NCBI GenBank assembly: GCA_040905385.1
Contig: JBBDRP010000002.1
Span: 679,010 to 743,009 of the forward strand
Reading direction: 5' to 3'
Length of the DNA stretch: 64,000 nucleotides
From: Minisyncoccota bacterium
Lineage (GTDB): Bacteria; Patescibacteriota; Minisyncoccia; Phycocordibacterales; SW-6-46-9
In this document: positions 1 to 28,237 of the stretch, one piece after another
How the letters are laid out: the number at the start of each line of letters is the position of its first letter
How positions within the stretch are numbered: position 1 is the first letter of the stretch
Program-made: the position numbers and the translations under genes
The notes under the pieces: generated by a model
Told to the model about the DNA's origin: nothing
Seen by the model: only the letters and a program-made list of their open reading frames with translations
Databases searched by the model: none

Positions 1-40
1 GTAGAATTGATGGAATATTTTTCATTGCCCAAGTTCTGAA

Positions 41-814
41 TTATTTCCAGATTTCTGCTTCTAAGTCACTAAAACAATCAGCTGGTGCAACTGGTGATCT
101 TGTCGATTTTGGCAACTTATCGGAAAAATCAGAGTAAATTTCTTCAACTTCTTCTTTACTAAATTCCAATTTTTCTATAATCTTTTTTATTCTATCTATG
201 ACACCAGGGGCTAGAAAAGCGAACTCTGAATCGAATGGTTTGTTAAATTCTGGGTCGGAGACTATGTTACCATTCTCATCAGTCATCATGTTTGTTGCTC
301 CATTCAGGTCAAGATAACAAACACCAAGATATATACGTAGCGCCTCTTTGAGTTTTTGTTCTTTTCTCAAAATCTCGGCCATTTGAAATCTTGTATTTCT
401 GTATAAACCCCACTGTCCGCTCTTTGCATGATTAAGAAGATCCTCGTTAAGTAATCCCCATTGAACATCGTGATCAGAAGGTTCTTTGTCGCTAAGATTT
501 TTTCGCAATGTTTCTTTCCTGTCTTCAAATCTCTTTTGCTCCTCAAGATACGCTTCTTGTGTTCCGTTCTCAATCCGCCATTGCTCGTCAATTTTTTCTG
601 CTTCATCTTTTGTAACAACTAGGCGTACATTATCTGGCGTTGTGCGGACAAGCATAAATTCTCCGCAATGCGGACATTTTGTTTTTGCTCCTGGCACCTT
701 TTTGAGAGCTTCGTGACAATTCGGACATTCAGCTTTTCGTTCGTCTTTTGGCTCTTGTAATACTTCCACTCTTTGAGTTGGTTTATTGCTTTTTATAAAG
801 TCAAAAATACCCAT
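41..814 (-). CDS. hypothetical protein with N-terminal C4 zinc ribbon (CPNC...CPHC)
   Basis: 257-aa ORF with two CxxC pairs near the N-terminus. Last gene of the minus-strand cluster that begins with the SMODS/SLATT pair. No recognisable enzymatic motif. Confidence 0.45.
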   Translation of the reverse strand: MGIFDFIKSNKPTQRVEVLQEPKDERKAECPNCHEALKKVPGAKTKCPHCGEFMLVRTTPDNVRLVVTKDEAEKIDEQWRIENGTQEAYLEEQKRFEDRKETLRKNLSDKEPSDHDVQWGLLNEDLLNHAKSGQWGLYRNTRFQMAEILRKEQKLKEALRIYLGVCYLDLNGATNMMTDENGNIVSDPEFNKPFDSEFAFLAPGVIDRIKKIIEKLEFSKEEVEEIYSDFSDKLPKSTRSPVAPADCFSDLEAEIWK

Positions 815-821
815 ATGCTAT

Positions 822-1556
822 TTAATTCTGTAAAGCGGAGTGCATCCAATAACTATCAGCAATATCAGGTAAATTGTCAGTCAAGAAATTATCCCAATTT
901 ATTTTTTCCCAAGTTTTCCGCTCAATCGTTATTAGTGCAACTCTGCTGAGTAATTCTTCACCATACTGATCAACCAGTGTTAAATGTGATTCAACAACTA
1001 TCGCGTTGACATCTTGACCCACGATGGAAGACAATTCTTTCACTAAGTCTTTAGCATCACTTAAAATCCCTCTACGAGTGAGATTCGTCGTTAAGTTTTC
1101 TTTGGCAATGTAATCAATCCAAAGCTCTCCGTCACTAGTTTCGATTCCTCTAATTTCTACATCATGTCCAAGTGCCCGCAGTATTCCAAGTTCAATATTT
1201 CGTTCCGGCGTTTCTGCCTGCGTTAGATAGTTATAAGTTTGAGATGTTCCGGAAAGTATCCCATCCCTTTCGCTTCTAAATTCTTTATCACTTTGTATAG
1301 CGGGCAAAAATATAGATCCAAATATTAAAACGACGAGCACGACAAACGTTGCTGGAACGAATTTCTGCATTTCGGGCTTTTTCTCAAGCATTTTTATTGT
1401 ACCGATAGTCCCTATCAGAGCAAGAATGAAGCCCGTTAAAAAATTTAAGACAATCCAAAAGAGAATGAGCAAAACAAAAAACATTCCCCCGGCAACTTTT
1501 TGCTTTTTCTCCTTTGTCTTTTTATCGTCTATGGCTGATTGATTTTCTTCATTCAT
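822..1556 (-). CDS. hypothetical membrane protein (two TM helices followed by a soluble C-terminal domain)
   Basis: 244-aa ORF with a Lys-rich N-terminus, two hydrophobic helices and a roughly 150-aa C-terminal domain. It sits 8 nt upstream of the zinc-ribbon ORF, so the two are probably co-transcribed. Confidence 0.45.
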   Translation of the reverse strand: MNEENQSAIDDKKTKEKKQKVAGGMFFVLLILFWIVLNFLTGFILALIGTIGTIKMLEKKPEMQKFVPATFVVLVVLIFGSIFLPAIQSDKEFRSERDGILSGTSQTYNYLTQAETPERNIELGILRALGHDVEIRGIETSDGELWIDYIAKENLTTNLTRRGILSDAKDLVKELSSIVGQDVNAIVVESHLTLVDQYGEELLSRVALITIERKTWEKINWDNFLTDNLPDIADSYWMHSALQN

Positions 1557-1714
1557 ATTTTGTTTGTTACTTAATAAAATAGTTCATTCACTCTCTCTTA
1601 ACTAGATTGTATATGTCTTCATTGCTCTCGTACACCCGCAGTCGGCCAGTCATGATGCCCAAGTGATACAACACACCCTCACTCATCAACCGCCAGTTCA
1701 TATCTTTCTGTATA

Positions 1715-2170
1715 TTATCCTAATTTTTCTTTCGCTTTTTCGTACGCCCAATCGGTAGTTGGTGGGGTCAGACGCACTAGTTGTTCGTATTCTTCAGATA
1801 CCTTTTCAGCTTTCTTCAAGAGATCATTCTCAGAGTAACTTGATGATAATGATTTCAATCGTGATGCCTTATTCTTTATAACTGTAAAGTTTTTAGCTGC
1901 ATTTAAATTCTCGTAGTAAGATTTATTTGGATTTATGACAATACTAGTTGCTACTATCACAGAAGATATAAGTGCGAGCAGTCCTGACCATGGCTCTATA
2001 AAACCTTGGATGAAAGCTGCGCTTGATAAGGATGCAATCACAGCCGGAAACAGTTCGGTAAATCGTGAGATCATTTTACTTCGTGTAGCAATAATATGAT
2101 GAGATTCTGCAGTGTATCTGGCGTTATCTGTTATTTTTTCAAATGTTTTTATAATGTTTTCTTTACTCAT
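1715..2170 (-). CDS. SLATT-like 2-TM effector protein (partner of the SMODS nucleotidyltransferase)
   Basis: 151 aa with an N-terminal helix (NARYTAESHHIIATRSKMISRF), two adjacent TM helices and a charged C-terminal helical tail. It lies 9 nt downstream of the SMODS gene on the same strand. Confidence 0.5.
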   Translation of the reverse strand: MSKENIIKTFEKITDNARYTAESHHIIATRSKMISRFTELFPAVIASLSSAAFIQGFIEPWSGLLALISSVIVATSIVINPNKSYYENLNAAKNFTVIKNKASRLKSLSSSYSENDLLKKAEKVSEEYEQLVRLTPPTTDWAYEKAKEKLG

Positions 2171-2181
2171 TTTATTATTGA

Positions 2182-3519
2182 TTATCTTTTAATTGGTACT
2201 AATATGCGATCGATGGCTACACATTCTTCATTTACGATGATATAGCACTCTACGTAATGTTCACCATGGTATTTCGTATTCTCAATCCTTTCTTCTTTAC
2301 CCTTATCATGAGATATTTCACCTCGTAAATCTTTTGCTCTCTGTGCCTCACTTCCATAGTTGCGAACTTTCCACATTACTCGATAAGAGTCTGGGACATC
2401 AATATCTGTAATCTTGAAGGTTAACCTCTTCTTTTTTTCAAGAGGAACCCCTTTGTCAATGAACCAGCTCAGAGGATTTTTTCGAAAACTTTTCTGTTCA
2501 ATATCAGCATCTATGGATACTGTGTATCTGGAGGATGTGTCTATGGGTATACCATAGTCTTCAGTTATATCTTGATCACCATATGATGGATACTGCTCAT
2601 TTAGCTGAGCGATGTTTGTTTCTGACGCGTATTTTGCAAATTTATTGTGTGATGTAGGGAAATCCATACCGAAAATCTTTCTCCATTCTTTAGACGCTTC
2701 TTCAAGATTTCCTTCTGATTCATGATTAAGGGCTTTTTCCGAGCGTTTTTTAGCAGTTTGAGTACGAGAGACCCAGTCTTCACCTAAGTTAATGAATTGT
2801 GATGAGGCAGGTGAATATAAATTCGAGTTTCGCTTCATTACTAAGTAGTCAAAAAAGCCAGCGATCAAGTGGGGGAATTTCGGATTTTCATTCTCTGCAA
2901 AAGGTAGATTAAGAAAATTAACCGCGAGAAGCTCTACTTGGTAGGAAGGTAATGGTACGTTTGAATTTTCGACCCATTTCTTAAGAATTTTTACAAAATC
3001 TAACGTGAGCGAGTTTTGCTCTTCTGACTGCTCTAAATTTATGACTTCCATATTAGGGTTCCAAATCTCCCAGAAACCTCCGTTTTCTGTATTTGGAATC
3101 TTAAAAGCTCCTGAGGAAAGTTTCCATGCTGGTAGAAGCTCTACCGAATGGGAACTTTCTGCAAAGTTTATAACAATAACTTTTCCAAAGGCGGTTATAT
3201 GTTCGGTTGTTGAAAATCTTTCATTCAATATTTCGCGGATTTCTTGCAATAATTTTGATTGCCGATTTCCCTGCCCGGCATCAAAACGACCAAATTCTTC
3301 ATCAGGCATTATGAAAAGTAAATCTATATCTTTCGGTGGCCGTATGTTTGTATCTTTTCTGTATGACCCCACTACTTCTTTCGTGCTTCCATCATAGTCA
3401 CTTTCGTAATACTTATCATGCACAGCACCACACACACTTTTAATTTTCGTCGAAGCATCTTCTTTTTGGCGTTCTGTGAGCTCTATATTACTTAAGAGTT
3501 GTAAGAAATTCTCATTCAT
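2182..3519 (-). CDS. SMODS / CD-NTase-like nucleotidyltransferase with a C-terminal extension
   Basis: 445 aa. Pol-beta type motif GSYRKDTNIRPPKDIDLLFIMP (G-S ... D-x-D), with a further acidic residue in the downstream ...VELLP... segment. The roughly 200-aa C-terminal region has no recognisable motifs. Confidence 0.6.
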   Translation of the reverse strand: MNENFLQLLSNIELTERQKEDASTKIKSVCGAVHDKYYESDYDGSTKEVVGSYRKDTNIRPPKDIDLLFIMPDEEFGRFDAGQGNRQSKLLQEIREILNERFSTTEHITAFGKVIVINFAESSHSVELLPAWKLSSGAFKIPNTENGGFWEIWNPNMEVINLEQSEEQNSLTLDFVKILKKWVENSNVPLPSYQVELLAVNFLNLPFAENENPKFPHLIAGFFDYLVMKRNSNLYSPASSQFINLGEDWVSRTQTAKKRSEKALNHESEGNLEEASKEWRKIFGMDFPTSHNKFAKYASETNIAQLNEQYPSYGDQDITEDYGIPIDTSSRYTVSIDADIEQKSFRKNPLSWFIDKGVPLEKKKRLTFKITDIDVPDSYRVMWKVRNYGSEAQRAKDLRGEISHDKGKEERIENTKYHGEHYVECYIIVNEECVAIDRILVPIKR

Positions 3520-3527
3520 ACAGCGTG

Positions 3528-3770
3528 TTAGTGTTTAGCATCCTTAGGTGGGTACGGATCATTTCCAGGTGGTACAGTGTCACTATCTCGAATGGGGCCT
3601 TTCGAGCTGTGGATACGAACCTCACCACCACCACTGCTTGCTGAATAGTCTTTAGCGATTTTTTCAGCTTCTTTTTGGGTATCGGCATAGCCGCTTACTT
3701 TGCTGGCACCCTCTTTTTTAATGCGCCACTTCTTTTTATCTTTATCTTGACTTATGTGGTAATTGGCCAT
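3528..3770 (-). CDS. DUF2188 family protein
   Basis: 80 aa. The pattern HI..D..KW.IKKEGASK...ADTQKEAEKIA...A...GGGEVRIH...G.IRDSDT..PGNDPYPPKD matches the DUF2188 signature. Confidence 0.7.
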   Translation of the reverse strand: MANYHISQDKDKKKWRIKKEGASKVSGYADTQKEAEKIAKDYSASSGGGEVRIHSSKGPIRDSDTVPPGNDPYPPKDAKH

Positions 3771-3772
3771 AG

Positions 3773-4408
3773 TTAGTTATCTAGATTAGGAAGTGTGGTT
3801 ACATACACACCTTGAATACGAAAATCCTCAGAGAGAATGATCGGGTGGTATTTATCTGGTTTGGTTGTTTCTGGTTTAAGCACCACTGACCCATCTTTCT
3901 TTTTCAGTCGTTTAAGAGTAGCCTCGTCGTCAATAAGAGCAACAACTATTTCTCCTTCATCTGCAGTGTCACGCTGCTCAATAAGAACGAGATCTCCATC
4001 ATTAATACCTGCCCTATTCATAGAATCTCCTTCAGCACGAAGAATGAAATAGTCGCTGCCAGGTGACGCAACTTGTGTATCTAGAGACACGTAAGATTTT
4101 ATGTTCTCATCGGCAAGCAGCGGTTCTCCACAAGCAACCCGTCCCACAATTGGTATTTCTACTGTGTAAGTATTCTCTTTTTCAGCTGCTGATCTTTTTA
4201 GCAACCTTAGTTTATTTCTAGATACACGCTCAAGAAACCCTTTCTCGATTAAAGAGTTTGTCAGGCGAGCCCCTGTTCTCGGAGAGCTATGACCAACCTC
4301 TTCTGCTATCTCTTTAACAGTAGGAGTAGCCTCTTTGTGTACTAAGGAATTGCGGATAAAGCGAAAAGCAACTTTTTCTTTTTCTGTAAGTGGCTGTATA
4401 TTGCTCAT
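3773..4408 (-). CDS. lexA: LexA-like repressor (winged HTH + S24 peptidase, Ser/Lys dyad)
   Basis: 211 aa. LexA-type DNA-binding N-terminus (TPTVKEIAEEVGHSSPRTGARLTNSLIEKGFLER), an autocleavage-region-like VGRVACGEP, a catalytic Ser in GDSMNRAGI and a Lys in ATLKRLKKK. Confidence 0.75.
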   Translation of the reverse strand: MSNIQPLTEKEKVAFRFIRNSLVHKEATPTVKEIAEEVGHSSPRTGARLTNSLIEKGFLERVSRNKLRLLKRSAAEKENTYTVEIPIVGRVACGEPLLADENIKSYVSLDTQVASPGSDYFILRAEGDSMNRAGINDGDLVLIEQRDTADEGEIVVALIDDEATLKRLKKKDGSVVLKPETTKPDKYHPIILSEDFRIQGVYVTTLPNLDN

Positions 4409-4689
4409 GTAAATAACAGTATATTAAATATTTACCTTAAAATCAAGTGGAGTGAGTCCCTCTATTGGATTTACCGTTCCAAAGCTAGTAATATAAGTAT
4501 AGACAACTTATGCCTAAACCACTGGTGTGTGGCATGGCGCAATACATGAAATCCATCCAAGGTACAAAGCTCCTCGTCAGGAGCACCTTGGATGGTTGTC
4601 GGCGGAAACGTCGGCAGATGGGCCTCGCCCATCAACTGGCGGGGAGCTTTCTGCATCTCCGCTCATTACAAAACTAACCAAAACCATCT

Positions 4690-5520
4690 ATGGAAACAGA
4701 GAAGACTCAGCACAAACCAAATTCTAAATGGAGCTGGATCATTGGAATAATCCTTGTTATTGCAGGTCTTGACATGTTAAGCGACTCGTTAGCGCTAGGT
4801 ATAACCTATCTTTTGGCAGGAACGATAATCATGCCTCCTGTCTCTAAGATGATCTCAGAAAAGACAGGGATTTTTATGTCCAACAAAATAAAAATTATTT
4901 CTGTAGTTGTATTATTTGCAATCGGAGGACTTGTAGGATTGTCCGCTAAAATGGACTCTGACCAAGCAACCACTCAACAGGTCAATCAGCAAGAAAATAC
5001 GGAAGCAGCAGTTGAAGCACAGGAGAAAGTAGATTACGAATTATTAACTGATGGCCCATACGTGCCAAACGGTCATAGGTATTCTGTGCTACTACCCGAA
5101 AATTCATCTCAGTCTGACGTGAGGTCTGTAGCACAAAAAATAGTTTCAGAAGATAACAGTGGTAGTGACGAAATAACGATCTTCTTCTGGGATGATAAGC
5201 GTCAGTATGAATTAGGTACTAGTTACAATGTAGCTGAAGCAGAATGGTCTGGAGGTGAAATATCCTATCAGTGGGTAGAAAATAACAAAGACTCAAGCTT
5301 AAAGCCAACTAGTCATGAACTTGAAATATACGATTACTACTGGGAAGTATTTGATGAGCCAGGTAATCCACGAGGATATGTATCTCACCCAACAACAGAC
5401 GAACAGGCTAATGCATGGGAGCTTCAAAGAATAGAAAGAATTACTGCTGAGTATGATATCTCTACAGACCGTCTCTTTGAAATAGTGAGAAAGACTCTGA
5501 CTTGGCAGTTTTCTCAATAG
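4690..5520 (+). CDS. membrane-anchored hypothetical protein (two N-terminal TM helices, extracytoplasmic domain)
   Basis: 276-aa ORF divergent from lexA. Two hydrophobic helices are followed by a Q/E/T-rich linker and a roughly 180-aa domain. Confidence 0.5.
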   Translation: METEKTQHKPNSKWSWIIGIILVIAGLDMLSDSLALGITYLLAGTIIMPPVSKMISEKTGIFMSNKIKIISVVVLFAIGGLVGLSAKMDSDQATTQQVNQQENTEAAVEAQEKVDYELLTDGPYVPNGHRYSVLLPENSSQSDVRSVAQKIVSEDNSGSDEITIFFWDDKRQYELGTSYNVAEAEWSGGEISYQWVENNKDSSLKPTSHELEIYDYYWEVFDEPGNPRGYVSHPTTDEQANAWELQRIERITAEYDISTDRLFEIVRKTLTWQFSQ

Positions 5521-5831
5521 AGTGTTGTAAGGTTTCCAAAATATATAAAGTATTGTGTAGTTGCATACTTTTCAATGTCTGTTAGTATAGATATGTGTTC
5601 GAAACGAACACTAAAGCACATTAAACAATTACTGAATTAGATTACATGTCCCACGCGCGGGCTCATCATGGCACAAAAACCGACGCAATGGTCATATAAT
5701 CAAAGATTTCAGTCAAACGGCGTATTCGCTTGGGTCATCATGCCAGAATAGCCATACGTGCGAACTGTGAATCAAGAAACTAACAAAACCCTTCTGGGGT
5801 GTTAGTGTTTTGGTTTACAGCTTGTACTACT

Positions 5832-5864
5832 AAAGCACCACCTCAGACAGGTGGTGCTTTTTTG
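5832..5864 (+). terminator. rho-independent terminator hairpin (aaagcaccacc-loop-ggtggtgcttt + T tract)
   Basis: A perfect 11-bp stem followed by TTTTTT, lying just upstream of the ParB-methyltransferase gene. Confidence 0.6.
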
Positions 5865-5890
5865 ATTATTTACCACTCACAAAATTAACT

Positions 5891-7162
5891 ATGGAAAAAC
5901 TAAACTGGCGCACAGAAAAACGAATTGTAGACGACCTTGTGCCGTACGAGCCTAACCCCCGGCAAATATCTGAGACTCAACTTGAGAAACTTAAAGATAG
6001 TCTGGAAAAATTCAACTTAGTAGAAATACCAGCAATTGATGCCGACAATACCATCATTGCTGGTCACCAACGACTGAAGGTCATGCAGCTACTTGATCGT
6101 GGCGATGAAGAAATTGAAGTTCGTGTACCGAACCGAAAGCTCACCCACGAGGAGTTTGAGCAGTATCTTCTTACTAGTAACCGCTCCGGCGGCGACTGGG
6201 ACTTTGATCTCCTTAAGGAATTCGATATTGAATTACTCTTAGAGGTTGGCTTTGACGCCACTGATCTATCCCATATCTGGGATGACATCCTCAGTATTGA
6301 AGACGATCAGTTTGATGAGGATAAAGCTCTTGAAAAAGCAAGTGAAACAAACATTGAACTCGGAGATGTCTTTGCTCTAGGTAAGCACCGGCTGATATGT
6401 GGCGATGCGACCGACAAAGAGACCGTCCAGAAACTTGTCGGTAGTACAAAGATTGATTTGGTAAACACTGATCCGGTGTACAACATCAACTTAGACTACA
6501 ACGCCGGCCTTGGTGGCGAAAGCTCATACGGCGGAACAACTAACGACAACAAAAGTCAGGGTGAGTACGAGAGCTTTCTGAACAACCTAATTACGAACGC
6601 ACTTTCTGTCACGAACGAAGATGCTCACATCTTCTTCTGGTGTGACGAAAAGTATATCGGACTACTACAGAATCTGTATGCAAGACATGAGATCAGTCAC
6701 AAGCGAAATTGTCTATGGATCAAAGGACCGCACAACCCCACCCCGAAGGTTGCCTTCAACAAATGCACAGAGTACTGCATCTACGGCACCGTCGGAAAAC
6801 CGTATCTCTCTGAACGGATTAAAAACTTGACCGAACTACAGAATAAGAACGTCGACAGCGGCAACCGCCTTATCGATGACGTGCTTGATCTTCTGAATAT
6901 CTGGCTAGTGAAGCGAGTCAACACCAGTGACTACGAACATCCAACCACCAAGCCACCAGCACTATATGAGAAATCACTACGACGCTGCTCAAAGCCCGGA
7001 GATAAAATTCTTGATCTCTGTGGTGGTTCTGGCAGTAGCTTAATTGCAGCTGAACAACTAAATCGAATGGCGTATCTAGTCGAGATAGAGCCGGTATTTT
7101 GTCAGGTAATCATCAATCGGTATGAAAAACTCACCGGAGAAAAAGCAGAAAAAATTAATTAG
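5891..7162 (+). CDS. ParB-like nuclease domain fused to DNA methyltransferase (N6-adenine/N4-cytosine type)
   Basis: 423 aa. N-terminal ParB/Srx motif (NPRQISE...LVEIPAI...GHQRL). The C-terminal half carries TDPVYN (a DPPY variant), HPTTKPP and CGGSGSS. The C-terminal half is paralogous to the next ORF. Confidence 0.75.
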   Translation: MEKLNWRTEKRIVDDLVPYEPNPRQISETQLEKLKDSLEKFNLVEIPAIDADNTIIAGHQRLKVMQLLDRGDEEIEVRVPNRKLTHEEFEQYLLTSNRSGGDWDFDLLKEFDIELLLEVGFDATDLSHIWDDILSIEDDQFDEDKALEKASETNIELGDVFALGKHRLICGDATDKETVQKLVGSTKIDLVNTDPVYNINLDYNAGLGGESSYGGTTNDNKSQGEYESFLNNLITNALSVTNEDAHIFFWCDEKYIGLLQNLYARHEISHKRNCLWIKGPHNPTPKVAFNKCTEYCIYGTVGKPYLSERIKNLTELQNKNVDSGNRLIDDVLDLLNIWLVKRVNTSDYEHPTTKPPALYEKSLRRCSKPGDKILDLCGGSGSSLIAAEQLNRMAYLVEIEPVFCQVIINRYEKLTGEKAEKIN

Positions 7163-7895
7163 GACTGGAGATGTTATTGAACTAGGTGACCACCGACTTG
7201 TTTGCGGTGATGCCACCGACAAAGATGTAATGGAAAAGCTTGCTAAAGATTTGACCATCGACTGCCTGTTAACCGACCCGCCCTACGGCGTCTCATATAC
7301 CGAAAGCAAAAAAGACTTTGCCAAGCTCTCCAATGACACAGCTATTGCCAACGATGATCTGGATGATGAAGCTGGTTACCAAAAATTCACAGCTGCCTGG
7401 CTGGAAGCCCTGCTCCCCCATTTGTCTAAAAAGAACAGCCTGTACATCTTCAACTCAGACAAAATGATATTTGCTCTACGCGAAGCCATGGTTGGAATGA
7501 ATATTCACTTTGCTCAACTACTTATCTGGACAAAGACACACTCAATCATTGGTCGGCTGGATTACCTTCCACAACATGAGCTGATCGCCTACGGCTGGTA
7601 CGGCACACACCAGTTTGAGAAAAGTAAGGACAAAAGCGTACTTATTCACCCAAAACCAAATAAAAGCAAACTCCACCCCACAATGAAGCCGGTGGGGCTA
7701 CTGCGACGCCTAGTTCTCAACAGCACGAAAGTTGGAGATGTGGTTTGCGATCTGTTTGGTGGATCAGGATCAACATTAATTGCCTGCGAACAGACTAAAC
7801 GAAAGTGTCTGATGGTTGAATCTGATCCCGAATACTGCCAAACAACTATAAACCGTTTTGAGAAACTTACCGGTAGTAAAGCAACCATCCTATGA
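7122..7895 (+). CDS. DNA methyltransferase (DPPY motif, N6A/N4C class)
   Basis: 257 aa. Motifs HRLVCGDATD, TDPPYGV, HPTMKPVGL and FGGSGSTLIA. It overlaps the 3' end of the previous gene by 41 nt. Confidence 0.8.
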   Translation: MKNSPEKKQKKLIRTGDVIELGDHRLVCGDATDKDVMEKLAKDLTIDCLLTDPPYGVSYTESKKDFAKLSNDTAIANDDLDDEAGYQKFTAAWLEALLPHLSKKNSLYIFNSDKMIFALREAMVGMNIHFAQLLIWTKTHSIIGRLDYLPQHELIAYGWYGTHQFEKSKDKSVLIHPKPNKSKLHPTMKPVGLLRRLVLNSTKVGDVVCDLFGGSGSTLIACEQTKRKCLMVESDPEYCQTTINRFEKLTGSKATIL

Positions 7896-9848: not shown

Positions 9849-9900
9849 CCTACTCTCTTTAGGTCTGGATAACCTCAACCAGTCCGGCACTGTGTAGGTA

Positions 9901-11196
9901 ATGACCGACAACCATCCAAGTAGTGCTTCTGACGAGGTTAAATACGTCCTCTATGCCCGTAAATCAACCGAAAGTGATGAACAACAGGCACTTTCAATAG
10001 ATGCACAGGTCAAGGAAATGAAGCGGCTAGCAGAGAAAAAAGACCTCAATATAACAGAAGTGATGACAGAAGCACACTCTGCTAAAGCAGTCGGGCAACG
10101 ACCGGTCTTCAACAAGATGATTGAAAAAATTAAAACCAGTGAATTCACTGGGGTACTCACCTGGGCACCAGATAGACTCTCTAGAAATGCTGGAGATCTT
10201 GGTGCCCTTGTTGATCTTATGGATCAAGATGTACTCAAGGTTGTCCAAACACACGGACAACGCTTTAGTGATGCTCCATCGGAGAAGTTCTTACTAATGA
10301 TAATGGGATCACAGGCCAAACTTGAAAATGATCAGAAAAGTAAAAATGTGAAGCGTGGACTACGGGCCAGATGTGAGCAAGGGCTGTGGCCTGCACCCGC
10401 ACCGACTGGGTACTTAAAACACAGAGACAGGAAAAAGAAATGCCATGTAGTGGTTGATCCTAAGCGAGCACCAACCATAAGAGATATCTTTCGAAAAGTT
10501 GCGTACGAAAATATGTCCGGAAGAGATGTGTATAGATGGCTGAAAAAGGATGCTGACTTTAAAACTAAAAATGGAAAGCATCTTACACAATCTAATATCT
10601 ATCTTATCCTTAAAAATACCTTCTACTATGGAAAATTTGAGTATCCGACCGGTAGCGATAATTGGTATGACGGAGTACATGAACCTATCATATCTAAAGA
10701 ACTGTACGAAAAAGTACAGTTATCTATACGAGCAAATACTCAGTACAAACCGAGCTCAAAAGAATTCGCCTTCACAAAGCTCATGAAGTGCGGAGAGTGT
10801 GGATCTGGAATTACCGTTCAAGAGAAAATAAAGAAATTGAAAGATGGTAGTGAAAGAAATTATGTCTACTACAACTGCACAAGAAGTAGAAATACCTACT
10901 GTGATGCCGAGTACATACGTGAGGTTGATCTGATTGAGCAACTTAAGGATCTAATAGATGAAATTAATATTAACGAACTAGGAGTACAAGAAAGTCTTCG
11001 GAATGAATTAGAGAGATTTAATTCATTCCGTGGATTAATTGGCGAAGATAAAAAAGATACAAAGATAGAGAACGTTGGAATTAAAGAGTATGCAAAATAT
11101 ATATTAAACAATGGAAGTTTAGTAGAAAAAAGACAGGTGTTATCTAATCTTAAAGGTAATATTATCTTAAAAAATGGAAAATTATTATATGAATAG
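9901..11196 (+). CDS. large serine recombinase / integrase
   Basis: 431 aa. Resolvase-type N-terminus (YARKSTESDEQQALSIDAQ ... LTWAPDRLSRN), a recombinase domain, and a Cys cluster (CGECGSG...YYNCTRSR...C) forming a zinc ribbon. Confidence 0.85.
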   Translation: MTDNHPSSASDEVKYVLYARKSTESDEQQALSIDAQVKEMKRLAEKKDLNITEVMTEAHSAKAVGQRPVFNKMIEKIKTSEFTGVLTWAPDRLSRNAGDLGALVDLMDQDVLKVVQTHGQRFSDAPSEKFLLMIMGSQAKLENDQKSKNVKRGLRARCEQGLWPAPAPTGYLKHRDRKKKCHVVVDPKRAPTIRDIFRKVAYENMSGRDVYRWLKKDADFKTKNGKHLTQSNIYLILKNTFYYGKFEYPTGSDNWYDGVHEPIISKELYEKVQLSIRANTQYKPSSKEFAFTKLMKCGECGSGITVQEKIKKLKDGSERNYVYYNCTRSRNTYCDAEYIREVDLIEQLKDLIDEININELGVQESLRNELERFNSFRGLIGEDKKDTKIENVGIKEYAKYILNNGSLVEKRQVLSNLKGNIILKNGKLLYE

Positions 11197-11263
11197 AAGA
11201 TTACTTCATTACAGAAATAGCTATGATAACATTGAGCTATTATAAATAGTATGGAAATTATCT

Positions 11264-11452
11264 ATGGAGGGATTTCTTAATGTTGTAAGAGCTGTTATTT
11301 TAACCTTTACATCTGCTGGAGGTCTTTATTTATTGTTATACATTACCATTCAGCTAGCCGGTAGAGACGATGGTGAGTTTGGCTTAGCTGTTACTGTTCC
11401 AACATCTTTAGTATTACTATTGATTTCTTATTTACTACTTCAGACTTTTTAG
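11264..11452 (+). CDS. small hydrophobic (2-TM) protein, hypothetical
   Basis: 62 aa, almost entirely hydrophobic. Could be spurious. Confidence 0.3.
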   Translation: MEGFLNVVRAVILTFTSAGGLYLLLYITIQLAGRDDGEFGLAVTVPTSLVLLLISYLLLQTF

Positions 11453-11670
11453 CTGCTAATTTCCATATTTTACTTTTGTTTTCTTAAATAAAATGATTTA
11501 TTTAAGAAAAATTATTATAAATTTTCATGATCATTTCTTACATCAGCCCATTTATCCTCAAACTGCTCGTTCACATCTACAGTATAAAATGGCATTCCGA
11601 CTAGATGGTAATCTTTGTTTTCGTAAAATGTCTTTAAATCATGCTCTTGCTAAAATTATTGACTTCATAT

Positions 11671-12126
11671 TTATTTTATTAGTATAGTTACTAATAAAGA
11701 GGCTAATGAAATTAGAAAAGCCAATGCCGATAAAAATAGACTAATTGGATTTTCCCAAGCTTTATGTAATAAGTATTGCAGTTTTTTTCCGCCCTTAGTA
11801 GTTAAAATAATTCTCTCTGAATCATTATTGAAATGACCCGCAAGAGATGAATATCCATGCACTTTTTGGGTATCTATTATTACTAATCCGTCATTTTGCA
11901 TTTTTTGCAACTCTCTACGAATGTGAGATTCTGAAATTTCTTCTTTATCATTTTTAATATTTTTATTTATTTCATCATAAATGACTCGAAAATTAGGATG
12001 CTCAGGGTAAAACTCAACCTCATTTGAAACATCATATCCTCCCAGTTCTTGTATATCCATATATTTAAAATTAGATTCTTGTTCAAATTGCTCCAGTATT
12101 TTTTTCAATCTATTGCGTAAATTCAT
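11671..12126 (-). CDS. hypothetical protein with C-terminal TM anchor
   Basis: 151-aa ORF in the AT-rich part of the island. Confidence 0.4.
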   Translation of the reverse strand: MNLRNRLKKILEQFEQESNFKYMDIQELGGYDVSNEVEFYPEHPNFRVIYDEINKNIKNDKEEISESHIRRELQKMQNDGLVIIDTQKVHGYSSLAGHFNNDSERIILTTKGGKKLQYLLHKAWENPISLFLSALAFLISLASLLVTILIK

Positions 12127-12195
12127 GTTTACCTATTCATAAAATTATTCACTTCTTTATTCTTCTTCGATAATCATTAATATTCACACTCTCAG

Positions 12196-13227
12196 CTAAT
12201 CGGCTTTTAATGACTTAATCAAATCAAGGGATAGTGAACTAGCTGCATATACGCCATCTATCTTCTGAAGATAGTCACGAGATTTATAAATCTCGTCAGC
12301 TACAAATAAATATACTCCATGATTCCTGATAGCTTCTGCGATATTTTGGCGTAGATCCAGTCCTAAAGTTATTTCAATCATCACATCCAAATCAGTCATT
12401 TGTGCTGTCTTAATAAACTGTTTATATCTTTCACGTAAAGTTCTTTTTGCGCCTATTCCTACAGTGACACCATCTGCATTAAAGAAGAAATCAAATTCTG
12501 TTGAACTATCATCTTCATCATGTTTCTTTTCAATGCTGTCAGCATCAATACCCATTTCAACAAGTATTTGAAAAATACGCTCTTCGTAACTTGAACCCGC
12601 TGTAGAAATAATTGATTGATTTACGCTCTCTGAAAACATCAGCATAAACATTTGATTAGGTTCAACTCCAGATTGCTTTAGTTCTTCAAAATCCTCCTTT
12701 AGATTATTCACATAATCCTCAGCACCTTGACTCAAGAAATTACTGTTACTTTCTTCAAGTTTCCTGAAAAATAATAGAGAAAGAAGGGCTCCATTCACTC
12801 GCATATAATATGGTTCATTCTTACTTTTTTTATCGTACTCTAATGAGAGTAAATGATGTTCAGATCTTTCCTCTTTAACTTCCTCTATCGATATTTTTGC
12901 CTCTTCTAGTAATAATGGTTTTACTTTTAATAACTTTAGCGCAAAGGAGAATATCTTGTAATCTTCAGAAGATTCAATCAAATATAAAGTACTCATCATA
13001 TTATCCATTTTTTCAGGACTTTTGATCTTTTCTTCAAAAATATTTTTTATTAAATCGTGACCTTTTTCGTATTCAGTAGCAGGATGACGGTTTGTAATTT
13101 CTAATACCTTGTTTAACTGATTCTCAGTTAAACCCAATCCTCCATTTATTTCCTTAAGAAAAACATAAAGCTTCAGGTTAGAGTCCAGTTTCTGTTTTTC
13201 TATTTCGATTTTATTATCTATGTTCAT
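12196..13227 (-). CDS. putative type II restriction endonuclease (partner of the m5C methyltransferase)
   Basis: 343-aa ORF 4 nt downstream of the C5-methyltransferase on the same strand. No clear motif was recognised, so the assignment rests on position only. Confidence 0.4.
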   Translation of the reverse strand: MNIDNKIEIEKQKLDSNLKLYVFLKEINGGLGLTENQLNKVLEITNRHPATEYEKGHDLIKNIFEEKIKSPEKMDNMMSTLYLIESSEDYKIFSFALKLLKVKPLLLEEAKISIEEVKEERSEHHLLSLEYDKKSKNEPYYMRVNGALLSLLFFRKLEESNSNFLSQGAEDYVNNLKEDFEELKQSGVEPNQMFMLMFSESVNQSIISTAGSSYEERIFQILVEMGIDADSIEKKHDEDDSSTEFDFFFNADGVTVGIGAKRTLRERYKQFIKTAQMTDLDVMIEITLGLDLRQNIAEAIRNHGVYLFVADEIYKSRDYLQKIDGVYAASSLSLDLIKSLKAD

Positions 13228-13230
13228 AAT

Positions 13231-14280
13231 TTATTCTTTTAGAGCCTCTTCTAATTCTATCTCTTCAATATTAATCTTGTTACCTTTACGAGGATTCATT
13301 TTTTTATGAGCTTTTACAACCTCTGCAGCTATAGCCTCAATAACAGGAATTGCAACACTGTTTCCAAACTGCTTATAAGCCTGTGTATCACTAACTGGTA
13401 TTTGAAAATTTTCTGGATAACCCTGCAGTCGAGCAGCTTCTCTTGGTGTTATCTTCCTAGGGTTCTTATCCTCCTGCTTAATCAGAATCTCAGAACCATC
13501 TTTGTAATACCGAGCAGACATTGTGCTTGTGTACTCGGAATCTTCATCAAACATAGAATAACCAAACCCCCAACCCTTTGCTTCATTCTCTTTTTTTCTA
13601 CGCTTATGACCAGACCAGAGCTTTTCAGATATTGTATATTTTTCTGGAACCTTATTTTCAAGAATTTGTCCGACTCTAGTTTCGTGCTTTGGTGGCTCAG
13701 GAAATGAAAAATCTGTCTCTCCAAGAAAAGCAATAATGTATATTCTTTCACGATTTTGAGGTACTCCAAAATGTTTAGCATTTAATACTCTAGCATGTAC
13801 TTCATATCCTAATTTTTCAAGAATAAATTTAACAATTTTAAATGTTCTTCCTTTATCGTGATTTTTAAATCCTTTAACATTTTCCAAGAAAAGAACTGAA
13901 GGATGATGATGATTTACAATTCTTGCAATATCAAAAAACAATGTACCTCTATCATCTTCAAATCCCTTCTTAAGACCAGCATGAGAAAACGGCTGACAGG
14001 GAAATCCAGCAAGCAGATAATCAAATTCTGGAATTTCCTCTTCATGGATTTCAGTGATATCACCATGCGGTATTTCATCAAAATTTTCCTTGTAAGTTTC
14101 TTGCGCAAACTTATCAAATTCAGATGAAAAAACACATTTACCATTATGTACCTCAAATCCTAGCCTGATACCGCCTATACCCGCAAATAAGTCGATGAAA
14201 GTAAAATCTGCATCTCTATTTTTAGTCCTATTATCAAAAAGTCGATTTAATTTAATTTTTTCTTTTACGTCATTACTCAT
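13231..14280 (-). CDS. dcm: DNA (cytosine-5)-methyltransferase
   Basis: 349 aa. Motif I FAGIGG, motif IV PCQPFS, ENV, QNRERIYIIAF, and a C-terminal FGNSVAIPV. Confidence 0.9.
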   Translation of the reverse strand: MSNDVKEKIKLNRLFDNRTKNRDADFTFIDLFAGIGGIRLGFEVHNGKCVFSSEFDKFAQETYKENFDEIPHGDITEIHEEEIPEFDYLLAGFPCQPFSHAGLKKGFEDDRGTLFFDIARIVNHHHPSVLFLENVKGFKNHDKGRTFKIVKFILEKLGYEVHARVLNAKHFGVPQNRERIYIIAFLGETDFSFPEPPKHETRVGQILENKVPEKYTISEKLWSGHKRRKKENEAKGWGFGYSMFDEDSEYTSTMSARYYKDGSEILIKQEDKNPRKITPREAARLQGYPENFQIPVSDTQAYKQFGNSVAIPVIEAIAAEVVKAHKKMNPRKGNKINIEEIELEEALKE

Positions 14281-14342
14281 TTTTTTGATTAATTTAAATT
14301 ATAAGAATACATACAATATTTATTTCTTACTTTATTTTACCA

Positions 14343-14780
14343 TCAGTTCTCACAAACATTACCTTGATTTAACTCACGGATATTGTGCATACATGGCTCC
14401 CCATCAGCCAATCCAAGAGCTGTGAGATGAACAAAGAATGATTTCCAGCCATTACCGCTGCTGCTACCGGCGAATTCGCCGGCGATGAACTTCTCTCCTT
14501 TCCATGTGTTACCGCTACTATCATAGTAAATGATAAGCTCGCCTTTATCGCCAAATTTGTTCTCGTACTGCATAAAGTACTCTGTATCGCCCTTTTTGGT
14601 TGGGCGACTACTCTTTGGCCGATACGGGGCATACCCCATAACTTTTTTACCAGCTTTAATCTTCCATTTGGCGAATAAAACCGTGTGCGGAAAGTTGTAA
14701 AGCACGGAATCTTCGTCATCAGAAAGGTGCTTAGGAATAAACGCGAACAAAGTACCATCAGCTTGATTGTTTCTTTTCAT
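14343..14780 (-). CDS. hypothetical protein
   Basis: 146 aa when started at MKRNNQ. The longer ORF in the track would read through an upstream GC-rich hairpin. Confidence 0.4.
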   Translation of the reverse strand: MKRNNQADGTLFAFIPKHLSDDEDSVLYNFPHTVLFAKWKIKAGKKVMGYAPYRPKSSRPTKKGDTEYFMQYENKFGDKGELIIYYDSSGNTWKGEKFIAGEFAGSSSGNGWKSFFVHLTALGLADGEPCMHNIRELNQGNVCEN

Positions 14781-15008
14781 AGGTTGTAAAGATAAAGGCG
14801 TCTCCCGCCGGAGACGCCTGAGTTTATAATCATCTCTCCTTGCGGATGGAATTAGCACCTTACTTTCGCAGGTTGCCGGTGGGTCACAGGGCCAGATCCC
14901 TCACCACACTCACGATAATTATTCAGTTGTGTTTACATAGTAACATCAACTCACGCCAGAAAGAAAGATTGGGATTAGCTTCGTTTATTACAATTTTTGT
15001 CCTCTTGA

Positions 15009-15575
15009 TTAATTATGTACATTCAAATCATTATTTAAATATTTATTCATCACCTTGTAACCACTATCTTTATCACTAACATGTGCCTTTATAACAAAAT
15101 TAAGTTTTTCTAGATTATCGGAATGGCTATTTATTTCTTCCGTTGATATTCCAATAAATCCTTTATCCCAGTCTAAGGCATTTCTTTTATTTTTTCGACT
15201 TGCTTTTACCAAGTTTAAAATTTTTGTTTCTCCAACTTCAGTCTTTTCTGATTTCATATTTATCCACCATTCAGAATGAATAATCTCGTTACGATATTCC
15301 ATTTCATCATAAATTAATGAATATATTTCTTTAAATTTATTAGCGTGTTTTTTCCCCAACCTTTCAGTAATAAGCTCTTGTAACAAATCAAGCTTATCTT
15401 TAAATGTAAGTTTTGTAGTTATGCGATGACATACTGACTGATGATCTGGTGTGTTACCAAATAAATAGAGGCAAATTAGATCTCCGATAGCATACTCAAC
15501 CTTATTGAAGAAAACTACAAATCTTCCAATAGATTCATATATTTGTTCTTGCTCTGTTTTCTCGTCATCACTCAT
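15009..15575 (-). CDS. hypothetical protein
   Basis: 188-aa ORF in an AT-rich segment. Confidence 0.45.
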   Translation of the reverse strand: MSDDEKTEQEQIYESIGRFVVFFNKVEYAIGDLICLYLFGNTPDHQSVCHRITTKLTFKDKLDLLQELITERLGKKHANKFKEIYSLIYDEMEYRNEIIHSEWWINMKSEKTEVGETKILNLVKASRKNKRNALDWDKGFIGISTEEINSHSDNLEKLNFVIKAHVSDKDSGYKVMNKYLNNDLNVHN

Positions 15576-15668
15576 TACGTGGCTATTTTAGTATCTCTAT
15601 CTTACCATCCAGACTACCTGAAACGAAGAGAGGTGGTGTGTAAGTAACCCACTACTCTAACCACCCTG

Positions 15669-15744
15669 TCTTGCAAGACGTATGCTAACGCTGCAAAACT
15701 AGAAGTATTAAGTACTGCTTATTCAAATCTTGTTACAGACCGCT
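15669..15744. repeat. direct repeat copy 1 (~76-80 bp, core tcttgcaagacgtatgctaacgctgcaaaactagaagt)
   Basis: About 90% identical to the copy at 17070-17147, with a 38-nt exact core. Confidence 0.85.
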
Positions 15745-15990
15745 CTTCAAGATTCCTTCTGGCGATACAAGTCCTCTTTCCACGTCCTGTTGTATTTTCT
15801 CCAGATATTCTCCTAGCGTAGCTCGTGTTAGATCTATCTCCGCCCTCTTGTATATCTGATAAAACTTGTCTACTGCCATCGCCTCCTCTTCAGACACGTT
15901 CAACCGGTCCGCTATTGCTTTTTCTTCGGTAAGCCACGGTAGTTCCACCATCTTCTTGTTCAAATGTTGTTTGTAGTTTTCTTTACTCAT
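15733..15990 (-). CDS. hypothetical protein
   Basis: About 86 aa from MSKENYKQ. Its 3' end overlaps repeat copy 1. Confidence 0.4.
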   Translation of the reverse strand: MSKENYKQHLNKKMVELPWLTEEKAIADRLNVSEEEAMAVDKFYQIYKRAEIDLTRATLGEYLEKIQQDVERGLVSPEGILKSGL

Positions 15991-16051
15991 AACTATATTA
16001 TTACCTTTTAACTCTCTGAAACTTAGCAAGCAACCGTAAGCCCTCTCTATA

Positions 16052-16459
16052 CTATATTTTAATTACTTCATTGACAGCTTCCTTTAAAGTTATTTTGAAA
16101 GCATTCATGTTACGAAAATCTTTCTGGACAACATGTGCAACACCTTCCCGTAATGCGTTTTCATTCCATTCCGGATTAGAAGAAATTGAAATCATTTTAT
16201 CAACGCCAAACTTTTTAAAATCAATGATGTGAAATGACTTACCATCAATACAATCACGGTCTAGAAGAACGAGATCGAAAGTGTCTGATATTAACTTATT
16301 AACAACACCTTCTACATGCAAATAGCTAGAAAACTGCATTGTTTTAAATTCTATATCCCTCTCTTCTGCAAGCTCATCCAAAGCACTGTAAATGACTGAA
16401 AGCGTTAAAGTGTCATCTTCCAGAATGAGAATATTGAGTTTATTTAATTTATTCATCAA
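16052..16459 (-). CDS. stand-alone response-regulator receiver (CheY-like) domain protein
   Basis: 135 aa. ILILEDD (acidic pocket), LVLLDRD (phospho-acceptor Asp) and a conserved K near the C-terminus. No output domain. Confidence 0.7.
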   Translation of the reverse strand: MMNKLNKLNILILEDDTLTLSVIYSALDELAEERDIEFKTMQFSSYLHVEGVVNKLISDTFDLVLLDRDCIDGKSFHIIDFKKFGVDKMISISSNPEWNENALREGVAHVVQKDFRNMNAFKITLKEAVNEVIKI

Positions 16460-16950
16460 CTAAATATAATTATAATAATGATAATAATAAAAATCCAGAA
16501 AGCAGAAGTATAAATCAGTACCCAAAAACCTCTTTTTTTGGCGTATAGTTCTTGAGCCCAGTAACTATATATAAATTTCCTGAGACTATCTGCTCTAAAG
16601 AATCGCTCTACTTCTTCCTGATCTAATGGCTCAACAAAGTTAATTGGAATGGTTTTTAGCTCATCATCTGGTTCCTCTAAATATTTTGTATATCCACCTG
16701 TGTACAGTTCTCTAACTTTGTCTTCAATCTGCTTTTCCACCTCATCAATTCTTTCCTCAAAATGATCACCTTTATTAATCACAGTGAACAAAGTGAAATA
16801 CATAGAATTATTTTCATCAAAGATAAATGTAGACGCATTCTCAAAACTATCAGCGTTATTGAGTTTCCCAATAAGAGTGTACTTTGGGTTTTCGGTAAAG
16901 TCTCTTAGGTGATTACTAATGTAGTCCGGAAACTCTTTTTTGTTGATCAT
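16456..16950 (-). CDS. hypothetical protein with C-terminal poly-Ile TM segment
   Basis: 164 aa. The C-terminus FWIFIIIIIIIIFS is encoded by an (ATA/ATT)n tract. Confidence 0.45.
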   Translation of the reverse strand: MINKKEFPDYISNHLRDFTENPKYTLIGKLNNADSFENASTFIFDENNSMYFTLFTVINKGDHFEERIDEVEKQIEDKVRELYTGGYTKYLEEPDDELKTIPINFVEPLDQEEVERFFRADSLRKFIYSYWAQELYAKKRGFWVLIYTSAFWIFIIIIIIIIFS

Positions 16951-17069
16951 GATTCGTAAATCATTATTCTTATATTTACTTTACCATCCACACACACCAT
17001 AAAGAAGCGAGTCAGTGCAGTCAGATACGCCGCTAGCGATAATTGACCCAAAGAGCATCGCCACTCCCA

Positions 17070-17147
17070 TCTTGCAAGACGTATGCTAACGCTGCAAAAC
17101 TAGAAGTTAAGTGCTGCTTTTTTATTCAGATCTTGTTACAGACCGCT
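17070..17147. repeat. direct repeat copy 2
   Basis: Matches 15669-15744. It lies 44 nt from the 3' end of tRNA-Gln. Confidence 0.85.
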
Positions 17148-17190
17148 AAGACATGACGCTACACCCGTCTCGGTCGGTCTCACTAAGTTG

Positions 17191-17261
17191 TTGCCGGACT
17201 AGGAATCGAACCTAGATTACGTGGACCAAAACCACGCGTCCTACCGTTAGACGATCCGGCA
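17191..17261 (-). tRNA. tRNA-Gln (anticodon UUG)
   Basis: Cloverleaf read by eye: acceptor tgccgga/tccggca, D-arm gtct-aacggta-ggac, anticodon stem cgtgg/ccacg with loop ttttggt, T-arm ctagg-ttcgatt-cctag. Confidence 0.8.
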
Positions 17262-17388
17262 CTGACCTGCAGAAACTGCTTATAGATTACCATAAAATAC
17301 CAGGAAAATAAGCCTTTTACTACATATAAATGACTCAATAAGTTTAGAACTCAGTATTGTTTAAATGCACAGCTCTTATGTATAAAAA

Positions 17389-27282: not shown

Positions 27283-27345
27283 ACGCAAGAAAATAGCATT
27301 GCTTTTATTTATTTGTTTCGAGTAAAGTGCTCACACGATTAGTAT

Positions 27346-27393: not shown

Positions 27394-27431
27394 ATCTTAC
27401 AGTTTTTCTCCAACAATCTCAAGAAAACTTA

Positions 27432-28220: not shown

Positions 28221-28237
28221 ATCTTTAGTGTAGCAAA

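Follow-up and report, generated by a model that had tools for sequence, protein, structure and literature searches.

Phage satellites of the phage-inducible chromosomal island (PICI) type, for example the Staphylococcus aureus pathogenicity islands (SaPIs), belong to a ~15-kb size class, integrate site-specifically, are governed by a divergent master repressor, take their packaging specificity from a terminase small subunit (TerS) of their own and encode no virion or lysis genes; defence cargo is common in them. The island analysed here is like them in these features. It lies in a 64-kb stretch of DNA (64,000 nt of contig JBBDRP010000002.1, referred to throughout as the window), of which positions 1-17188 form the tRNA-proximal part (at least 17.2 kb) of the island, the left end being beyond the start of the window. 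The host is a Candidatus Paceibacterota bacterium, that is, a member of the Patescibacteria or Candidate Phyla Radiation (CPR). We consider that the island is probably an integrated mobile element of a Patescibacteria family, most likely a phage satellite.

CPR bacteria are ultra-small, with genomes of roughly 1 Mb, and to our knowledge few mobile elements have been recognised in them, their phages and routes of gene exchange being poorly known. We found no description of this element family in the literature. A more far-reaching proposal, made tentatively and held to be somewhat less than evenly likely, is that it represents the first recognised phage-satellite family of the CPR: a family of single origin that retained, of a siphovirus, no more than the packaging block of ParB-methylase, TerS and the terminase large subunit (TerL), with a large serine recombinase (LSR) that integrates into tRNA T-arms, defence and metal-resistance cargo that travels in stolen capsids, and the LOOT RNA as a cis-acting translational leader, which here is also tied to the start codon of the integrase. 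The facts at the level of the family are solid.

The core genes of the island

An earlier note on this DNA had recognised a fusion of ParB with a methyltransferase, a second methyltransferase, both terminase subunits and a large serine recombinase. All of these are confirmed by profile matches, the ParB part by alignment. The core genes are:

4690-5520 (+): g08, a membrane protein with three transmembrane (TM) segments, the N-terminal three-TM layout being as in the LOOT-led 'c4' proteins of relatives
5891-7162 (+): fusion of ParB-N with an N6-N4 DNA methylase (methylase match 6.6e-25)
7122-7895 (+): second N6-N4 DNA methylase (1.6e-31), present in about half of the relatives
7892-8308 (+): terminase small subunit TerS, of helix-turn-helix type (PHROG terminase small subunit families, 1e-8)
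8301-9848 (+): terminase large subunit TerL (phrog_38, 6e-82), with Walker A/B and nuclease acidic residues intact
9901-11196 (+): LSR, the integrase (Resolvase, Recombinase and Zn_ribbon_recom), CcrB/XisF-like

Between g08 and the 'c4' proteins of relatives there is no detectable sequence homology, the layout alone being shared. Pfam sees only the methylase domain in the ParB-methylase fusion, and the ParB part was assigned by aligning its N-terminus to a homologue in locus L001 that matches ParB_N. The GSGKS and DDxED motifs of TerL are invariant in the alignment of the family. No recombinase other than the LSR was found among the annotated open reading frames (ORFs) of the window.

A family of elements across Patescibacteria

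A TerL profile search of species-representative genomes returned at least 463 loci, and the best 80 of these come almost all from Patescibacteria (Paceibacterota, Saccharibacteria, Peribacteria, Moranbacteria and others). Homologues of the ParB-methylase are present in 85 of 88 related loci, of TerS in 86 and of the LSR in 66 (median identity 52%). The earlier note had pointed out that the terminase genes are followed immediately by the integrase, and this adjacency is a hallmark of the family rather than an accident. When all ORFs within 10 kb either side were clustered, only the core genes proved to be conserved, and the cargo genes of the window do not occur in the 88 loci. TerL relatives in IMG/VR with 45-53% identity have the ParB-methylase, TerS, TerL and LSR beside restriction-modification (RM), OLD and reverse transcriptase genes, the RM genes being of type I or type III. 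Cargo in the relatives comprises type I and type III RM, OLD, reverse transcriptase, PLD-SNF2, ThsB-TIR and SNase, together with copper-resistance genes (CsoR, HMA-DsbD, thioredoxin and a P-type ATPase).

The core genes are under strong purifying selection. In six related pairs, dN/dS lies at 0.01-0.04 in TerL, at 0.01-0.05 in the LSR and at 0.03-0.09 in the methylases, while TerS, compared in one pair, has 0.055. The conserved core of the family is the LOOT leader with a small membrane protein, the ParB-N/N6 methylase, TerS, TerL and the LSR; a divergent LexA/CI-like repressor and the second methylase are optional. Variable cargo fills two slots, one to the left beyond the repressor and the other to the right between the recombinase and the tRNA.

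Some loci depart from the single TerL gene. Two tandem TerL paralogues (of ~520-610 aa and ~500 aa) replace it in L024, L030, L032, L033, L040, L056, L065, L077 and L080, lying at ~8-11.5 kb in each locus; in the L040/L065 and L033/L080 pairs, purifying selection acts on both paralogues. There can also be more than one copy of the element per genome or contig: L098 and L099 share one 39-kb IMG/VR contig, and the pairs L017/L032 and L009/L021 each come from the same metagenome-assembled genome.

Integration at tRNA genes and complete copies

In all 27 loci that have a tRNA gene downstream of TerL and the LSR, the window among them, the nearest such gene is encoded on the opposite strand and its 3' end faces the element. 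The tRNAs concerned are Ser, Gln, Glu, Asp, Asn and Met, and in six loci the stop codon of the LSR is ~100-220 nt from the tRNA. Loci L038 and L042 share 6.25 kb at 92% identity, which ends in the 3' part of two different tRNA-Ser genes.

Complete elements were recognised from repeats at both ends. In L062 and L066, repeats of the tRNA-Ser 3' end (T-arm), 15 and 17 nt long, mark both ends, giving complete elements of 15.8 and 16.6 kb, and in both the left repeat copy adjoins the terminator hairpin of the tRNA. L003 and L088, with 13-nt repeats near the tRNA, are elements of ~15 kb. The repeat-bounded relatives measure 14.8-16.6 kb. The island in the window likewise abuts the 3' end of a tRNA gene, tRNA-Gln, its far end being outside the window.

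In order, L066 has DUF5677, Gabija (OLD-ATPase and UvrD), methylase, TerS, TerL, LOOT with two small ORFs, and the LSR, followed by a MutH-like endonuclease and an m5C methylase and then the tRNA-Ser. The architecture is that of the window, and the cargo is different. A stretch of 11.3 kb is common to L040 and L065, and it takes in three cargo genes located between the LSR and tRNA-Gln. Given this layout in L066 and the cargo inherited together in L040 and L065, positions 1-17188 of the window are read as one element with two cargo arms.

Absence of virion genes and relationship to phages

The earlier note reported no portal, capsid or tail genes, and this holds across the entire window: homologues of portal, protease, capsid (major capsid included), adaptor, tail and tape-measure proteins were found neither in 1-17188 nor elsewhere in the 64 kb. 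The same is true of the family. No portal, capsid or tail genes occur within 10 kb in the ~100 loci examined, and the structural proteins of the nearest true phages have no match in ~103 capsid-less element loci. The absence of virion genes goes with the small size of the bounded relatives, as in PICIs. There are also no capsid, portal or connector genes of the element's own such as the capsid-forming PICIs (cf-PICIs) encode.

The true phages nearest to the family have a different layout. In 25 phage loci, whose TerL is 33-44% identical to that of the window, the methylase-TerS-TerL block is followed directly by portal, protease, capsid, adaptor, tail and tape measure (PHROGs). The capsid-less layout is shared by the IMG/VR loci whose TerL reaches 43% identity or more, the exceptions being L105, which has 44% identity and a portal gene, and the short contig L106 (43%), placed in the sister clade of the TerL tree. 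In a neighbour-joining tree of 146 TerL proteins, 97 capsid-less loci and L110 make up one clade without any portal-bearing member, and its sister clade consists of portal-bearing phages. The TerL proteins of the family are therefore a single clade, with a single origin.

These results bear on whether the island could be a prophage. The window starts inside the island, and a same-strain Logan contig, SRR27977661_1325812, 100% identical over the 11.4 kb compared, starts inside an 80-nt repeat described below and reaches 4.2 kb to the left of the window. This would allow an intact prophage with its head and tail genes to the left, the attP splitting its genome between the integrase and the portal gene. 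Structural genes are found within 10 kb either side in none of the ~100 relatives, however; the repeat-bounded relatives total only 14.8-16.6 kb; and the additional 4.2 kb are too short for a siphovirus structural module, which takes up more than 10 kb in the nearest phages. We give an intact prophage very little credence.

The earlier note had left the choice between a PICI-like satellite and a heavily decayed prophage. A remnant of a temperate phage that has lost its structural genes and is drifting towards loss would fit the clearly phage-derived packaging genes and the position of true phages as the sister clade, and TerL is indeed split in a few relatives (L047 and L079). Against it stand the identical minimal gene set in ~100 examined loci and at least 463 genomes, the dN/dS values of 0.01-0.09, the single TerL clade, the complete copies of 15-17 kb with intact att repeats, and a recombinase that replaces the structural block at a fixed position. 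Given the purifying selection and the invariant ATPase and nuclease motifs, which indicate a functional element, decay is largely refuted and we consider it highly improbable. It is the satellite half of the earlier proposal that the family-wide evidence favours.

The insertion site and extent of the island

The junction at the right-hand end of the island is formed by a tRNA gene:

17190-17261 (-): tRNA-Gln(ttg), identified by ARAGORN and Rfam

Its 3' end points at the island. The earlier note described a foreign, mosaic, AT-rich island abutting this tRNA and carrying defence genes, TerS/TerL and a serine integrase, most AT-rich at 11.2-17 kb, and proposed that composition profiles and related genomes be compared. 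Both comparisons agree with that description. The GC content is 38.2% at 1-17188 and 46.2% at 17189-64000 (1-kb windows, Mann-Whitney p=1.6e-6), and by sub-block it is 38.2% (1-4450), 41.9% (4451-11200) and 34.0% (11201-17188), the last being the most AT-rich. The GC contrast is clear, and the tetranucleotide contrast between the island and the rest is modest only.

Six host relatives (L164-L169; MscS 86% and 16S rRNA ~97% identical) share CTP synthase, AP endonuclease, MscS and tRNA-Gln with the window, and these are followed by TauE, MamF and an S24/Y-family-polymerase pair. None of the content of 1-17188 is present in them. Nucleotide similarity to related genomes ends at 17188, and the synteny with L164 resumes exactly at the tRNA-Gln gene. 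Since other genes follow tRNA-Gln in these relatives, 1-17188 is an insertion. The end of the island was previously placed 40 nt from the tRNA gene; the similarity in fact stops at the tRNA 3' end itself.

In the closest relative contig, L170 (MscS 91%), the genes that follow MscS are unrelated except for a SLATT-like fragment. This contig was considered as an empty site and rejected on account of these genes. As they differ yet again from those in the other relatives, the site is a hotspot. It is worth adding that L164 has three small ORFs between MscS and the complete tRNA-Gln, whose 5' part is also present in two additional, incomplete copies (49 nt) at 12324-13007. Other insertions, on the 5' side of this same tRNA, seem to have left these traces.

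Further AT-rich patches occur elsewhere in the window, at ~27.3-30.1 kb and 49-53 kb. The first includes ~2.8 kb of additional AT-rich DNA carrying small ORFs (27283-30104), between the 16S rRNA gene and tRNA-Ile, where L164 has only ~156 nt. The 16S rRNA gene itself (30309-31944, minus strand) is 1636 nt long, with two short insertions (~66 and ~78 nt) that the 97%-identical 16S rRNA gene of L164 lacks, and no 23S rRNA gene was found in the 64-kb window.

The LOOT RNA leader

The intergenic region ahead of g08 matches the Rfam family LOOT, and the start of the recombinase gene is complementary to part of it:

4511-4689 (+): LOOT RNA (Rfam model 4511-4633; RF03000, 65.4 bits against a gathering score of 46.4) with a 3' extension to the g08 start codon
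9901-9937 (+): first 37 nt of the recombinase ORF, complementary to LOOT hairpin 2 (pairs with the loop and 3' half, 4571-4602)

LOOT lies between the repressor and g08 and is the 5' leader of the core operon. The match covers model positions 1-121 and is above the gathering threshold, and the fold has a z-score of -6.3. Using a covariance model built in the present analysis, LOOT was found in 37 of the 88 loci of the first set (L001-L088) and in four later loci of the family (L102-L104 and L110), and in none of ~58 true-phage loci, with 10 kb examined on each side. LOOT is a leader specific to this family. In Rfam it is entered among the sRNA genes, and the literature searched gave no account of its function.

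In the 35 loci checked, LOOT is followed by an ORF on the same strand that starts within ~150 nt downstream and mostly encodes a small membrane or zinc-ribbon protein. In 16 of the 35, at least 9 nt of the 5' arm of hairpin 2 are repeated beside the start codon of this ORF, compared with 5% in mismatched controls. These copies suggest that LOOT is a cis-acting translational switch and not the sRNA listed in Rfam. In the major class of LOOT, the loop of hairpin 2 can pair with a G-rich stretch just 3' of the Rfam model, and this pairing shows apparent covariation (e.g. CUCCACG/CGUGGAG and CCCCACG/CGUGGGG).

Aligned by eye, LOOT and the recombinase start are complementary at ~31 of 33 positions, 16 of them in one perfect stretch, and the duplex of -74 kcal/mol is the best of 1585 tiles of the window. 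Both segments are on the plus strand, possibly in one operon transcript. Complementarity above background was seen in none of 29 related loci. LOOT as an antisense regulator of the recombinase throughout the family was accordingly rejected, and the match was kept as specific to the window, where it may reflect control of integrase translation or may be a scar of recombination.

The left arm

The left arm runs leftwards from the repressor, and its visible genes are:

41-814 (-): g01, a zinc-ribbon protein (257 aa; weak Zn-ribbon matches only; NCBI WD335_03545), the outermost visible cargo gene of this arm
822-1556 (-): g02, a three-TM membrane protein by hydropathy scan (244 aa), whose C-terminus matches phrog_8263 (1e-11, unknown function)
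1715-2170 (-): 2TM/SLATT effector of a cyclic-oligonucleotide-based antiphage signalling system (CBASS) (PADLOC 2TM effector 2e-13, RTasSLATT 3e-18; Pfam SLATT_4 3e-5)
2182-3519 (-): CBASS CD-NTase, the oligonucleotide cyclase (PADLOC cyclase 8.6e-108; SMODS 7e-24, AGS_C 2e-39)
3528-3770 (-): DUF2188 protein (PADLOC candidate PDC-S16; profile matches), paired with the repressor
3773-4408 (-): LexA/CI-like repressor (LexA DNA-binding domain and S24 autopeptidase; Pfam), divergent from the core operon

The CBASS-like pair, the DUF2188 protein and the LexA-like repressor had all been named before, and the profile matches agree. With the CD-NTase beside a 2TM/SLATT effector, and no matches to Cap2/Cap3 or other CBASS ancillary genes in the neighbouring ORFs, the system is a type I CBASS. 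The repressor, on the minus strand, diverges from the LOOT/g08 operon on the plus strand, as in PICIs. A homologue is at the same position in 14-18 related loci, and the pair of repressor and DUF2188 recurs in six.

Two observations concern single cargo genes. A copy of g01 stands alone in an unrelated metagenome context (L171 1178-1959, 91% nt identity), and the SLATT-like fragment of L170 (10714-10935, 63% aa identity) adjoins MscS. Single cargo genes therefore move independently.

The right arm

The genes between the recombinase and the tRNA are on the minus strand, and the features of this arm are:

11671-12126 (-): orphan ORF (151 aa; no family match), the last gene of the minus-strand run
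12196-13227 (-): probable type II restriction endonuclease (by position; sub-threshold EcoRII-C match, 1.2e-4)
13231-14280 (-): C-5 cytosine DNA methylase (Pfam 1e-106; PADLOC MTase_II 2e-129)
14343-14780 (-): orf145, an orphan protein under the control of the riboswitch (family of four proteins)
14786-14921 (-): S-adenosylmethionine (SAM) I riboswitch, aptamer 14827-14921 (RF00162, 61.9 bits against a gathering score of 44.4), with an intrinsic terminator at ~14786-14817
15009-15575 (-): orphan ORF (188 aa; no family match)
15669-15750 (no strand): ~80-nt direct repeat, copy A, inside which the same-strain Logan short-read contig breaks
15733-16950 (-): three orphan ORFs (98, 135 and 164 aa; no family match) between the repeat copies
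17070-17151 (no strand): ~80-nt direct repeat, copy B, 39 nt from the tRNA-Gln 3' end

The earlier note had proposed a type II m5C RM pair here. The methylase is certain. Its partner is a putative endonuclease, for which the adjacency (its start is 4 nt after the methylase stop) and the sub-threshold EcoRII-C match argue; it gave no match in a PDB sequence search, NCBIfam or PADLOC.

Reading along the minus strand, the order is SAM-I riboswitch, orf145, m5C methylase and putative endonuclease. The aptamer scores above the gathering threshold and has an expression platform: directly downstream of it are a GC hairpin and a U-run, read as a terminator from the sequence, and then the ATG at 14780. 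A SAM-I riboswitch also precedes the homologues of orf145 in all three contigs fetched (L173 7861-8441, L174 3244-3824 and L175 2392-2972), and in these the unit sits among restriction or defence genes. No family match was found for orf145, and its AlphaFold2 model (pLDDT 59.6) gave only insignificant β-barrel matches, with no fold assigned. It is a speculation that the unit senses depletion of SAM, for example by phage SAM lyases.

The two copies of the 80-nt repeat differ by two small indels and bracket 1.3 kb, and there is no third copy inside 1-17 kb. The spacers of the window next to the tRNA and after the recombinase have no evident similarity to those of relatives.

The sharp fall in GC at 11.2 kb, from 41.9% to 34.0%, could mean that the LSR element ends there, and that 11.2-17.19 kb consists of separate AT-rich islets (one with the RM genes and riboswitch, the other the 1.3-kb repeat-bounded segment) accreted in tandem at the tRNA-Gln hotspot. 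This would suit the repeat that brackets 15751-17069 beside the tRNA, the variability of the region after MscS and tRNA-Gln among close relatives (small ORFs and partial tRNA copies in L164, other genes in L170), and the short distance from LSR stop to tRNA in several relatives, only ~100-220 nt. In many relatives, nevertheless, the LSR and the tRNA are separated by 1-7 kb of cargo on the minus strand; L040 and L065 inherit such cargo together with the core; the complete, repeat-bounded L066 has its m5C RM pair in exactly the same slot; and the window has no att-like repeat or tRNA fragment at ~11.2 kb. We regard tandem accretion as unlikely, while keeping it in view.

Proposed life cycle

The gene content suggests how such an element might live. 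The LSR would integrate it into the T-arm/3' end of a tRNA gene, for which the element would supply a replacement 3' end. The repressor would hold the rightward operon off until DNA damage or infection by a helper phage triggered self-cleavage by its S24 domain, and the operon (LOOT, g08, methylases, TerS, TerL and recombinase) would then be expressed. The element would be excised by the recombinase, and its own TerS and TerL would recognise a pac site on it and pack it into procapsids supplied by a related helper phage of siphovirus-like type. In the closest true phages, TerL is 33-44% identical to that in the window. The defence cargo would meanwhile protect the host, and hence the element. 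We hold the chances of this satellite life cycle being correct to be about even.

The terminase might instead have been kept for a role other than that of a satellite, namely interference with phages (by competition for the portal or cutting of DNA) or the processing of DNA for a transfer independent of capsids, in what would then be a defence island with a serine recombinase. The cargo is overwhelmingly made up of defence genes, replication genes were not found and no helper was identified, and known satellites (SaPI, PLE) interfere with the packaging of their helpers, all of which would agree with such a role. What speaks against it is that TerS and TerL, with all ATPase and nuclease motifs, have been kept together with the phage-like ParB-methylase in the order of true phages; a complete, pac-specific TerS/TerL pair is rarely needed for interference alone; and the spread over CPR lineages at ~50% TerL identity implies efficient horizontal transfer. 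A role of this kind seems to us quite improbable.

Several points weigh against the satellite reading. Helper-dependent packaging and satellite behaviour are deduced from gene content alone. Neither the ORFs of the window nor the recurrent ORFs of the family matched a primase, helicase or Rep family, several small conserved ORFs being unannotated; most known satellites have a replication module. We know of no serine recombinases that target tRNA genes, and the 13-17-nt repeats would fit a tyrosine integrase too; none was present among the annotated ORFs, though no systematic screen was made. Within 1-17 kb of the window there is no tRNA-Gln fragment marking attL, and the full size of this copy and the lack of virion genes upstream would follow by analogy with the relatives. 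The right arm at 11.2-17.2 kb may in part be a later accretion in tandem at tRNA-Gln, for which the GC step and the pair of repeats leave room. Finally, some loci (L009, L021, L026, L028, L029, L036, L038, L042 and others) are in bins labelled Gammaproteobacteria, Bdellovibrionales, Flavobacteriaceae, Nitrospirota or Bacteroidota, and these are either mis-binned CPR contigs or a sign of a wider host range.

If the satellite reading is true, a conserved terminase element without a capsid, found across hundreds of species, would form a major route for the spread of defence and metal-resistance genes in the CPR, and there would be a concrete pairing of satellite and helper for testing, where none is known. 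The element would also be a new combination among satellites, with a serine integrase aimed at tRNA T-arms, and TerS and TerL without a capsid. LOOT gains a genomic context and a testable model of cis-regulation.

Comparison with known systems

The differences from PICIs are considerable. The present element has an LSR and not a tyrosine recombinase, TerL besides TerS, and a ParB-methylase, while the primase/replicase-ori module and the capsid-remodelling genes of PICIs were not found in it. Its repressor is an autopeptidase of the LexA S24 type, its host belongs to Patescibacteria, and its induction by a helper would be by analogy. With no replication module found, a serine integrase and both terminase subunits, it is not a PICI by membership. 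The cf-PICIs are similar in having both terminase subunits of their own and needing a helper for the rest, but they encode portal, capsid, protease and head-tail connectors, which are absent here and in ~100 relatives.

Cassettes of the staphylococcal cassette chromosome mec (SCCmec) type also use a CcrB-like large serine recombinase, which inserts an island of cargo genes at the 3' end of a conserved housekeeping gene. Their target, in contrast, is rlmH and not a tRNA, and they are without terminase genes or phage-type regulation. The siphovirus-like temperate phages (IMG/VR L105 and L108-L137) have the homologous, syntenic methylase-TerS-TerL block, with TerL 33-44% identical and in the sister clade; they differ in the full structural module after TerL and in having no LOOT within 10 kb either side. 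Loci of the present family are currently labelled 'viral' (as uncultivated viral genomes in IMG/VR) or as prophage fragments, and deserve a separate class.

The tycheposons of Prochlorococcus are like the present family in their tRNA-targeted integration, partial tRNA repeats and modular cargo slots, and their PICI-like subset carries terS or a capsid gene (bioRxiv 10.1101/2020.12.28.424599). They mostly have tyrosine recombinases, together with replication genes, and their PICI-like members are reported without extra cargo; 27 of 937 elements, tycheposons and cryptic elements taken together, use a large serine recombinase (bioRxiv 10.1101/2020.12.28.424599). These hallmark genes, the tyrosine recombinase families and replication genes, were not found in the island, and it differs from tycheposons further in its TerL, ParB-methylase and LOOT RNA and in the phylum of its host. 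By analogy, the element would work most like a satellite or cargo island of the PICI or tycheposon type.

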